Assembly: GCF_016903815.1 (NCBI RefSeq)
Contig: NZ_CP069973.1
DNA: 64,000 nt
From: Escherichia coli
Lineage (GTDB): Bacteria; Pseudomonadota; Gammaproteobacteria; Enterobacterales; Enterobacteriaceae
Strand: one strand, 5' to 3'
Below the pieces are notes generated by a model. That model saw only the letters and a program-made list of their open reading frames with translations, was not told the DNA's origin and did not search any database. Below are positions 42,953 to 44,699 of the stretch, piece by piece (position 1 is the stretch's first letter; every line of letters begins with the position of its first letter). Position numbers and translations under genes: made by a program.

Positions 42953-43436
42953 TTATCCGGTGCGCCGTAAAACCCCGTCCTTCAGGGCGGGGATATAAGG
43001 CGCGGTTTTCCACCTGACCAGGTGTTTGCTGTTGTTCAATGTATTGGCGGATGACGGATATTGGCGCACCTCCGCAGCTACTGGCAAAATAGCCAGGACT
43101 CCACAAAACGCCTTTGTAGTAATACCTGACTGCAATATCTGGTCGATCTCGTCGCAGTCACCTACCCGATACGCCTTTGAGGCTGTTTACCAGACTGGAT
43201 ATCGCCAGTTTGGGAGGATAGTTAATTAACAAATGGACGTGATCTGGTTCGCCATCCATTTCAACCAGTTCAGCTTCAAAATCAGCACATACATCTGAAA
43301 AGTAAGTGCGTGGTTTTTCTGTCGCGTCATGGTCAAAAATCTGGCGTCGGTATTTGGGACAAAGACCAGGTGAACATGCATCAGGAAAACACAATGCCTT
43401 CCACGCCGGATATCGGTTTCTTTTTTCACAGACCAA
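42918..43436 (-). pseudogene. tnpA: IS200/IS605-family tnpA (HUH Y1 transposase), disrupted by at least two frameshifts
   Basis: Three frames carry consecutive TnpA segments: ..HVHLVFVP | KYRRQIF...DHVHLLINYPPKLAISSLVNSLKGVSGR | WSPGYFASSCGGAPISVIRQYIEQQ; first shift is at the short A-run in GTCCCAAATACC. Confidence 0.8.
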
Positions 43437-44699
43437 AATATAATTTGACCTGTGAAACGACGACAGGCATTTAAATTCCAGTTAAGACCCGGTGGTCAAC
43501 AGGAGCGTGAAATGAGGCGCTTCGCAGGCGCATGTCGTTTCGTTTTCAATCGTGCTCTGGCGCTTCAGAATGAGAATCATGAGGCCGGTAATAAATACAT
43601 CCCTTACGGGAAAATGGCTTCCTGGCTGGTTGAGTGGAAAAATGCCACTGAAACGCAATGGCTTAAAGATGCCCCGTCACAGCCATTGCAACAGTCACTG
43701 AAAGACCTTGAGCGGGCTTACAAAAACTTCTTCCAGAATCGGGCTGCTTTTCCCCGATTCAAAAAGCGGGGACAGAATGATGCATTCCGCTACCCGCAGG
43801 GCGTTAAGCTCGATCAGGAAAACAGCCGTATTTTTCTGCCGAAACTTGGCTGGATGCGCTACCGGAATAGCCGTCAGGTCACGGGAGTTGTGAAAAATGT
43901 CACTGTCAGCCAGTCCTGCGGTAAGTGGTACATCAGTATTCAGACCGAAAGTGAAGTATCCACTCCGGTTCACCCTTCAGCATCAATGGTCGGGCTGGAT
44001 GCTGGCGTGGCTAAACTCGCCACGCTGTCAGATGGCACAGTCTTTGAGCCTGTAAACAGTTTTCAGAAAAACCAGAAGACGCTGGCGAGACTTCAGCGAC
44101 AGTTAAGCCGCAAGGTCAAATTCAGCAACAACTGGCAGAAGCAGAAACGCAAAATACAGCGACTGCATTCCCGTATCGCAAATATCCGCAGGGACTACCT
44201 TCACAAAGTCACAACGACCGTCAGCAAAAACCACGCAATGATAGTCATTGAGGATTTGAAGGTCAGCAACATGTCAAAGTCAGCAGCGGGTACGGTCAGC
44301 CAGCCGGGGCGCAATGTCCGGGCAAAATCAGGTTTAAACCGTTCGATACTGGATCAGGGCTGGTATGAAATGCGCCGCCAGCTTGAGTACAAGCAGCTCT
44401 GGCGTGGCGGTCAGGTGCTTGCTGCTCCGCCAGCGTACACAAGCCAGCGTTGCGCGTGCTGTGGTCATACAGCGAAAGAAAATCGCCTGTCACAAAGTCA
44501 ATTCAGATGCCAGGTATGTGGATATACAGCGAACGCCGATGTAAATGGCGCTCGTAACATTTTAGCGGTGGGGCACGCCGTTCTTGCCTGTGGAGAGATG
44601 GTGCAGTGAGGCCGCTCGTTGAAGCAGGAACCCACCGAAATGATTCAGGCGACAGCCTGAACGTAGCAGGGATCCACGTCCTTCAGGGCGTGGAGGATG
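42953..44699 (+). mobile_element. IS605-family insertion sequence (frameshifted tnpA, intact tnpB), inserted in yajI; ends approximate (+/- a few bp)
   Basis: Near-identical subterminal imperfect hairpins CC(C/A)CGTCCTTCAGGGCG(G/T)GG at 42973-42992 and 44674-44693; tnpA remnant on the minus strand; tnpB on the plus strand; no target-site duplication, as expected for this family. Confidence 0.8.
43452..44609 (+). CDS. tnpB: IS605-family TnpB (OrfB; RuvC-like RNA-guided nuclease of the OMEGA type)
   Basis: 385 aa; RuvC-I (GLDAGV), RuvC-II (MIVIEDL), zinc finger CACCGH...CQVCGY, RuvC-III (DVNGARNI). Confidence 0.9.

Follow-up and report, generated by a model that had tools for sequence, protein, structure and literature searches.

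In the insertion sequence IS608 of Helicobacter pylori, the transposase TnpA acts on the top strand in its single-stranded form, where it recognizes subterminal imperfect palindromes (PMC3201880, PMC5934647). The left cleavage site (CL), TTAC, lies in the flanking DNA on the 5' side of the left hairpin, at a distance of 19 nt, and the cleavage sites are read by pairing with guide tetranucleotides 5' of the stems, which are AAAG at the left end (GL) and GAAT at the right end (GR) (PMC3201880, PMC5934647). Specifically, the pairs are A+16 with T-3 and A+17 with T-4 (PMC5934647). The right cleavage site (CR) is TCAA, 10 nt 3' of the right-end palindrome (PMC3201880). The preferred configuration of the IS200/IS605 family is for the top strand to be the lagging-strand template (PMC5027513). 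The guide RNA of TnpB takes its guide from the DNA that flanks the right end, and the transposon-associated motif (TAM) of TnpB is the target of the transposon (PMC10055086). Furthermore, an "8-bp stem, UUCA tetraloop" has been described as the right-end-like motif of the sense-overlapping transcripts (sotRNAs) of tnpB (Gomes-Filho et al. 2015, PMC4615843). This motif was linked to the RNA HgcC, and sotRNAs were detected in E. coli K-12, among others (PMC4615843). We analyzed a stretch of 64,000 nt from Escherichia coli (contig NZ_CP069973.1 of assembly GCF_016903815.1; "the window"), in which a copy of IS609, a member of the IS200/IS605 family, interrupts the gene yajI and carries hairpins of this type near both of its ends.

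We are confident that these hairpins, at 42973-42992 and 44674-44693 of the + strand, are the left-end and right-end subterminal imperfect palindromes (IPL and IPR) of the IS609 copy in yajI. By homology, they would be TnpA sites, and the right-end hairpin would also be a stem of the guide RNA of TnpB (the omegaRNA). An IS605-like element had been predicted at this locus, and this element indeed matches copies at ydcO, yeaR, yfaV, yedK, a TetR gene, and elsewhere, with 97.5–98.6% identity from end to end. Some of these copies are annotated by RefSeq as "IS200/IS605-like element IS609 family transposase."

The boundaries of the element follow from empty sites. The neighborhood is the tsx-yajI-nrdR-ribD region of E. 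coli, and yajI (on the - strand) is interrupted; an intact yajI is present in L001 (L numbers are our labels for loci). When the window is aligned to the intact allele, the flanks stop at ...CTTTAT (42956) and restart at TGAG... (44704). And if 42877-42956 and 44704-44783 are joined, all 160 nt of this synthetic joint agree with the intact yajI of many genomes (100% identity). Since joining the flanks restores yajI exactly, the element runs from 42957 to 44703 on the + strand (1747 bp), and no base was duplicated or lost. The sequence TTAT is present as a single copy in the empty site, so it is the target and not part of the element. TTAT at 42953-42956 is in the yajI flank, serves as both the target and CL, and is the predicted TAM of TnpB. 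The right cleavage site (CR) is TCAA at 44700-44703, with which the element ends; the cut would fall 10 nt 3' of the foot of the hairpin. There are no terminal inverted repeats: the tips, CCGGTGCGCC... and ...GGATGTCAA, show no inverted repetition. The same ends were seen at all seven of the independent IS609 insertions that we compared, with a left flank that ends in TTAT and is followed by CCGGTGCGCC..., and with an element that ends in ...GGAGGATGTCAA (TCAA) and is followed by unrelated DNA.

The insertion leaves a C-terminal fragment of yajI at 42547-42956 (- strand; RefSeq annotates this fragment at an identical locus) and an N-terminal fragment at 44704-44833 (- strand), which includes the lipoprotein signal MNTNVFRLLLLGSLFSLSAC.... 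Of 5426 complete E. coli genomes, 5424 have the locus, with the yajI site occupied in 340 and empty in 5084. Because all of the remaining loci are empty, the 340 occupied ones suggest that yajI::IS609 is a single old insertion that was inherited within one lineage.

The left hairpin is CCCCGTCCTTCAGGGCGGGG, or CCCCGTCC-TTCA-GGGCGGGG, and begins 16 nt from the left end of the element. The right hairpin is CCACGTCCTTCAGGGCGTGG, or CCACGTCC-TTCA-GGGCGTGG, and stops 10 nt from the right end. Both contain the 14-mer CGTCCTTCAGGGCG, which is present exactly twice in the window, at 42976-42989 and 44677-44690, both times on the + strand. One further site in the window, at 51607, matches this 14-mer with two mismatches; 0.5 sites with up to two mismatches are expected by chance. 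If the + strand is folded as single-stranded DNA (ssDNA), each end forms an 8-bp stem (9 bp for the right end) that includes a single T·G pair and is capped by a 4-nt loop, TTCA. The predicted energies are -7.5 kcal/mol for the left hairpin (z = -2.3) and -7.7 kcal/mol for the right hairpin (z = -2.9). On the - strand, the fold is weaker (-6.9 kcal/mol) because T·G turns into C·A. The left and right stems differ by one compensated pair, which is C-G on the left and A-T on the right.

These results agree with the original prediction, which described the two 20-mers at these coordinates, their shared 14-nt direct repeat, and 8-bp stems with a T·G mismatch and a TTCA loop. It also proposed that the element disrupts yajI and that empty-site alleles should be sought, and the excision joint, at 100% identity to intact yajI, bears this out. 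The idea would have been undermined if the 14-mer were present in wild-type yajI and the ends of the element lay elsewhere. We checked the empty-site allele and found no copy of CGTCCTTCAGGGCG in intact yajI. The closest match there has three mismatches, which is at the level of chance, and is in the region of the nrdR-ribD junction. The ends of the element lie just outside the hairpins. The prediction needs correction on one point: the hairpins were said to mark the ends, and they are subterminal in the element as proposed, but the span between them falls short of the ends at 42957 and 44703 by 16 nt and 10 nt.

A repeat of 14 nt is not improbable by itself in 64 kb, as we estimate that several pairs of identical 14-mers would be expected by chance. 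The significance of the hairpins is in their palindromic form, their placement 16 and 10 nt inside ends that were mapped independently, and their conservation. The hairpins are kept in six other IS609-type copies, four of which have an identical left-end hairpin, and at 120 or more loci from other phyla. We identified the latter with the pattern CCTTCAGGGNNNNGAGGANGTCAA, which matched at least 120 stretches from actinobacteria, haloarchaea, proteobacteria, chlamydiae, and cyanobacteria. Among the matches listed, there are 56 distinct hairpins, and the four stem pairs that are not constrained by the pattern are paired in 83.5% of cases, as compared to a mean of 64.8% and a maximum of 72.3% for shuffled pairs. 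Many of the changes in the stem are double changes, such as CTCCACCC/GGGTGGAG, CGCCGTCC/GGGCGGCG, or CCTCTTCC/GGGAGAGG. At the position of the T·G mismatch, the listed variants have C-G in 30 cases and T·G in 25. Across the stems of the 56 distinct hairpins listed, G·T is found in 53 cells and A·C in just 14, so the strand that folds is the tnpB-sense strand.

Two oddities among these matches are worth recording. In four loci (L059 from an Acinetobacter metagenome-assembled genome or MAG, L065 from Thiothrix, L083 from Competibacteraceae, and L114 from Halorussus), the right-end-type hairpin is preceded by TTGACATCCT. This is the reverse complement of the AGGATGTCAA tail, and it replaces the usual GGAAT guide and gives an extended palindrome of 40 nt. 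Also, 1.9–2.5 kb upstream of its right-end match, L065 (Thiothrix fructosivorans) has three copies of AGCCGACTTTCAGGGTGGTT, spaced 294 nt apart, with near-identical flanks; this tandem repeat contains a hairpin-like core.

The guide tetranucleotides of IS609 are where the IS608 rule places them. The left guide, GL, is AAAA at 42969-42972 (+ strand), directly 5' of the foot of the left hairpin, and the right guide, GR, is GGAT at 44670-44673 (+ strand), directly 5' of the right hairpin. All three expected pairs (G1:C-3, G2:C-4, and G4:C-1) are found between AAAA and TTAT, and all are A:T. GGAT can likewise form all three with TCAA, in this case G:C, G·T, and T:A. (G1:C-3 and G2:C-4 are from PMC5934647; G4:C-1 is our extrapolation from AAAG and TTAC in IS608.) Furthermore, guides and targets covary in related elements. 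Among the pattern-scan matches listed, 10 of 16 candidate left ends fit all three pairs at offsets of 15–17 nt, as compared to 0 of 16 at control offsets, and the combinations of target and guide include TTAT/AAAA, CTAC/AGTG, TCAT/GATA, TGAT/CAAA, and TGAA/CAAT. By eye, and with no matched control, four haloarchaeal left ends also fit the rule at 18–19 nt. At the right ends, GGAAT is found at the position of GR in 71 of the 121 matches listed.

There may be a second small hairpin at the left end, CACCTGACCAGGTG at 43011-43024 (+ strand), which came from a scan for terminator-like structures and has a 5-bp stem. We consider it tentative. This stem-loop is about 55 nt inside the left end, a position that resembles that of the accessory stem-loop of IS608 at +46 to +60 (PMC5934647), and its loop contains a polymorphic position of the tnpA stop codon (see below).

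The hairpins were also predicted to define the polarity of the element, and they do: the + strand, which is the sense strand of tnpB, is the top strand that folds, with TTAT at its left and TCAA as its last bases. A positive GC skew around the element marks the + strand as the one rich in G. From the map position in E. coli and the usual convention for GC skew, we take the top strand to be the lagging-strand template.

By homology to IS608 and ISDra2, we propose that a dimer of TnpA (a Y1 HUH transposase) would bind both hairpins by their shape on the single-stranded top strand. What supports a role of the top strand in this is the asymmetry between the strands, with T·G on the + strand against C·A on the - strand in the window and an excess of G·T over A·C (53 to 14) in the family. 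GL (AAAA) and GR (GGAT) would pair with CL (TTAT) and CR (TCAA), which would position the cuts. The top strand would then leave as a circle, and the flanks in yajI would be resealed precisely ("peel and paste").

The right-end hairpin is also very probably the 3'-terminal stem of the omegaRNA of TnpB, to judge from other TnpB systems. The stop codon of tnpB is at 44609 and the right end of the element is at 44703. We predict that 44587-44703 (+ strand), which overlaps both the 3' end of tnpB and the right end, is the 3' part of the scaffold of the omegaRNA (also known as right-end element RNA or reRNA). The predicted fold of the right-end RNA has a z score of -3.2, and the right-end hairpin forms within it. 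We ran a permissive Rfam scan of this region and found three resemblances: RAGATH-18 (RF03064) at 44587-44630, with 29.5 bits against a gathering threshold of 44.9; HgcC (RF00062) at 44603-44716, with 24.9 bits against 50; and sot0042 (RF02656) at 44656-44694, with 15.5 bits against 88. Since these matches are all below threshold, we set aside membership in any of these families and treat them as resemblances. RAGATH-18 corresponds to a separate stem upstream. In the alignments to HgcC and sot0042, the right-end hairpin is the terminal stem, and the AGGAUGUCAA that trails it agrees with the consensus of HgcC. If the hairpin is transcribed along with the 3' end of tnpB, it would form the last stem of the scaffold, and the RNA would read on into the flank. 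The predicted guide is TGAGTTGCGTCATCTC, at 44704-44719 (+ strand) in the yajI flank, as expected from the mechanism of TnpB (PMC10055086). In the empty site, TTAT precedes TGAGTTGCG..., and a sequence identical to TGAGTTGCGTCATCTC adjoins TTAT in the empty yajI site of other strains. So TnpB, with this guide, might cut the TTAT-flanked empty site.

Given this second role, we also considered that the right-end hairpin might be conserved mainly as a stem of the omegaRNA, with its role as a DNA site for TnpA being secondary, so that only the left hairpin is primarily a TnpA site. Most of the related loci appear to have tnpB only, with a left-type hairpin 0.3–3 kb upstream in just 33 of 101 cases among the matches listed. 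The alignments to HgcC and sot0042, and the detection of sotRNAs that carry the motif, including in E. coli K-12 (PMC4615843), would also fit. The stems tolerate G·U-type changes (the 53 G·T as against 14 A·C), but ssDNA tolerates G·T as well, so this asymmetry does not separate the two roles. And the left and right hairpins of an element stay matched, while the pairing of GR with CR and the 10-nt spacing are kept as in IS608, which argues for continued use by TnpA. We think it unlikely, if still a serious contender, that the RNA role is the main one. In any case, the DNA and RNA roles of the right-end hairpin are compatible and do not exclude each other.

It is very improbable that the hairpins are intrinsic terminators or generic palindromes of the repetitive extragenic palindromic (REP) type, with no role in transposition. 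They are GC-rich stem-loops, and the right-end hairpin is just 3' of tnpB. However, they are not followed by a run of T (the next bases are ATATAAGG and AGGATGTCAA), and a scan for terminators called neither hairpin, so we rejected the terminator. The motif is also found nowhere else in the window; it always accompanies the element and keeps a constant distance to TTAT and TCAA.

As the original prediction warned, two copies of a repeat in direct orientation near both ends of an insertion could be mistaken for a target-site duplication, and we also considered native yajI sequence outside the element; but there is almost no chance of either, as both are ruled out by the alignment to the empty site and by the synthetic joint (the 14-mer is not in intact yajI, both copies lie in the element, and removing 42957-44703 restores yajI without a duplicated base), and the repeats recur in IS609 copies at six other sites.

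Returning to our proposal that the hairpins are the IPL and IPR of IS609, with roles in both TnpA and TnpB function, several observations weigh against it. First, the binding and cleavage of DNA by the TnpA of IS609 would be like that of homologs whose similarity is limited (phmmer E ~ 1e-19). We found no biochemistry on IS609: going by titles and abstracts, none of the 20 listed out of 49 papers that mention IS609 is evidently mechanistic, and searches on E. coli TnpB with the TAM TTTAT and on insQ yielded no paper on IS609, again by title or abstract. Second, the spacing at the left end is 16 nt instead of the 19 nt of IS608, and the pairing of GR with CR includes a G·T wobble. Third, several other copies have unpaired substitutions in their hairpins (the left end of L004 and the right ends of L005 and L007), so current selection does not extend to all of the copies. 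Fourth, none of RAGATH-18, HgcC, and sot0042 reached its gathering threshold. Finally, in the window copy itself, tnpA is dead and TnpB is truncated.

The pseudogene of tnpA is at 43015-43429 (- strand). A 1-bp deletion near 43357 shifts its reading frame, and an internal stop follows ...KGVSGR; RefSeq annotates it at an identical locus as "frameshifted; internal stop." The internal stop is shared with the copies at ydcO and yedK. In contrast, copy L005 encodes an intact TnpA of 143 amino acids, which matches Y1_Tnp in Pfam (E = 1.3e-41) and transpos_IS200 in NCBIfam (E = 8e-43). The TnpA of IS609 is homologous to IS608 TnpA, whose structure is solved (2a6m/2vjv, E = 2e-19), and to ISDra2 TnpA. 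Given the frameshift and the stop, the window copy is not self-mobile and would need TnpA from another IS609 in trans. Since its hairpins are intact, it could still be mobilizable in this way. In NZ_CP023820.1, the record with the best match, two further places match the query.

The stop codon of tnpA, at 43015-43017, is polymorphic: it is TAG in L005 and L007 and CAG in the window copy, L003, L004, and L006. In the copies with CAG, the tnpA frame continues antisense through the left-end hairpin and into the flanking DNA. This probably explains annotations of a "missing C-terminus."

The other gene, tnpB, is at 43452-44609 (+ strand) and encodes an RNA-guided endonuclease of 385 amino acids, with matches to OrfB_IS605, TNB, and HTH in Pfam and to guided_TnpB in NCBIfam (E = 4e-116). 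A change from TCA to TGA at 44608, which is private to the window copy, shortens TnpB from 402 to 385 amino acids, where the lengths in other copies are those annotated by RefSeq. The truncation may be tolerated, judging from the protein sequence, because homology to ISDra2 TnpB, whose structure is solved, stops at residue 376 and just the last 17 residues are lost. The same substitution falls within the predicted scaffold of the omegaRNA, where the stem that resembles RAGATH-18 has its loop region. In all, the window copy has 13 private differences from five other copies, and it is 1747 bp long instead of the canonical 1748 bp.

There are also tnpB-only derivatives of IS609-type elements. Two of these, of 1336–1337 bp, are on plasmids (L008 on NZ_CP021537 and L132 on pF719-4). 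About 405 bp, including tnpA, have been deleted from them, and they keep separate left and right hairpins as well as the TTAT and TCAA ends.

We also noticed a much smaller derivative. A TTAT-flanked unit of 46 bp is present, with 100% identity, at a minimum of three unrelated sites in genomes and plasmids of other E. coli. It consists of the left 16 nt of the element, a hybrid hairpin, and the right 10 nt (TTAT, then CCGGTGCGCCGTAAAA-CCCCGTCCTTCAGGGCGTGG-AGGATGTCAA). Examples are L129 (1501-1551), L130 (1501-1552), and L131 (1501-1551); L132 has a larger element (2651-3987), and the window has none. A hybrid 37-mer, which cannot be seeded by either end alone, has a match in 480 of the 5426 complete E. 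coli genomes, although on plasmids, many matches are restricted to bases 8–37 and may be variants of the right end. Among the locations of these units are P1-like plasmids and prophage regions of the O157 type. At one site in P1-like plasmids, pF719-4 has the tnpB-only IS609-type element of 1337 bp, while pTB423 and others have the 46-bp unit, and 60 nt of flanking sequence on both sides are identical between the two forms. Therefore, the unit arises by deletion between the hairpin cores, and we refer to it as a scar. In other words, the matching cores may act as built-in substrates for deletion: as direct repeats of 14 nt, they would allow recombination or slippage to collapse the element to a scar. 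At the P1-plasmid site, the larger derivative is found in one record only, and it is tnpB-only; at a scar site adjacent to nleD, no record has a full-length IS609.

The scar is probably immobile, as far as can be told from its sequence, because it keeps GL without GR and there is a C·T mismatch in the stem. We doubt that single-hairpin units are an undescribed class of IS200/IS605 relics, perhaps with a function such as mobilization in trans, a small RNA, or a decoy for TnpB. Similar units are found outside of E. coli, in L103 from Edwardsiella ictaluri and L104 from a Thiotrichales MAG, where a left-type 5' part (TTAC or TTAT plus ...GTAAAG or ...GTAAAA) is combined with the AGGATGTCAA tail. 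So collapse from end to end is not specific to IS609.

These hairpins are not new biology: the type of hairpin, the part it plays for TnpA, and the reappearance of the hairpin in TnpB-associated RNAs have all been published. What our analysis provides is an annotation that is exact to the base, with boundaries at 42957 and 44703, the polarity, TTAT as target and TAM, and the predicted guide. It also accounts, by the insertion of IS609, for the split yajI that about 6% of the complete genomes of E. coli have, and it shows that the window copy is non-autonomous. The evidence that the hairpin cores mediate collapse to 46-bp scars with a single hairpin is a by-product and is mildly new.

The window element is most like the other IS609 copies, with which it shares the divergent layout of tnpA and tnpB, the hairpins at the ends, the TTAT target, and the TCAA end. 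It differs in being 1 bp shorter, in the frameshift and stop in tnpA, and in having a TnpB of 385 instead of 402 amino acids. IS608 is similar in having subterminal palindromes at both ends, a target in the left flank, no target duplication, and guide tetranucleotides 5' of the stems that pair with the cleavage sites. The transposases are homologous, and TCAA as CR, with its 10-nt spacing, is the same in both. However, the target, GL, and GR are TTAC, AAAG, and GAAT in IS608 and TTAT, AAAA, and GGAT in IS609, and in IS609, tnpA is inverted relative to tnpB. Also, the T·G pair in the stem of IS609 is at a place for which an extra-helical T is described in the literature on IS608.

The likeness to sotRNAs and HgcC is at the 3' end of tnpB, where the 8-bp stem and UUCA loop, with AGGAUGUCAA after them, match the consensus of sot0042 and HgcC as well as the motif of Gomes-Filho et al. 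(PMC4615843). The differences are that the IS609 matches score below the gathering thresholds of Rfam, and that the omegaRNA of IS609 is a prediction from sequence in this study. Finally, the 46-bp relics resemble palindrome-associated transposable elements (PATEs) and other derivatives of the IS200/IS605 family that are like miniature inverted-repeat transposable elements (MITEs), in that they are gene-less derivatives of the same ends. But PATEs have separate left and right ends, while the relics have one hybrid hairpin, and GL without GR.

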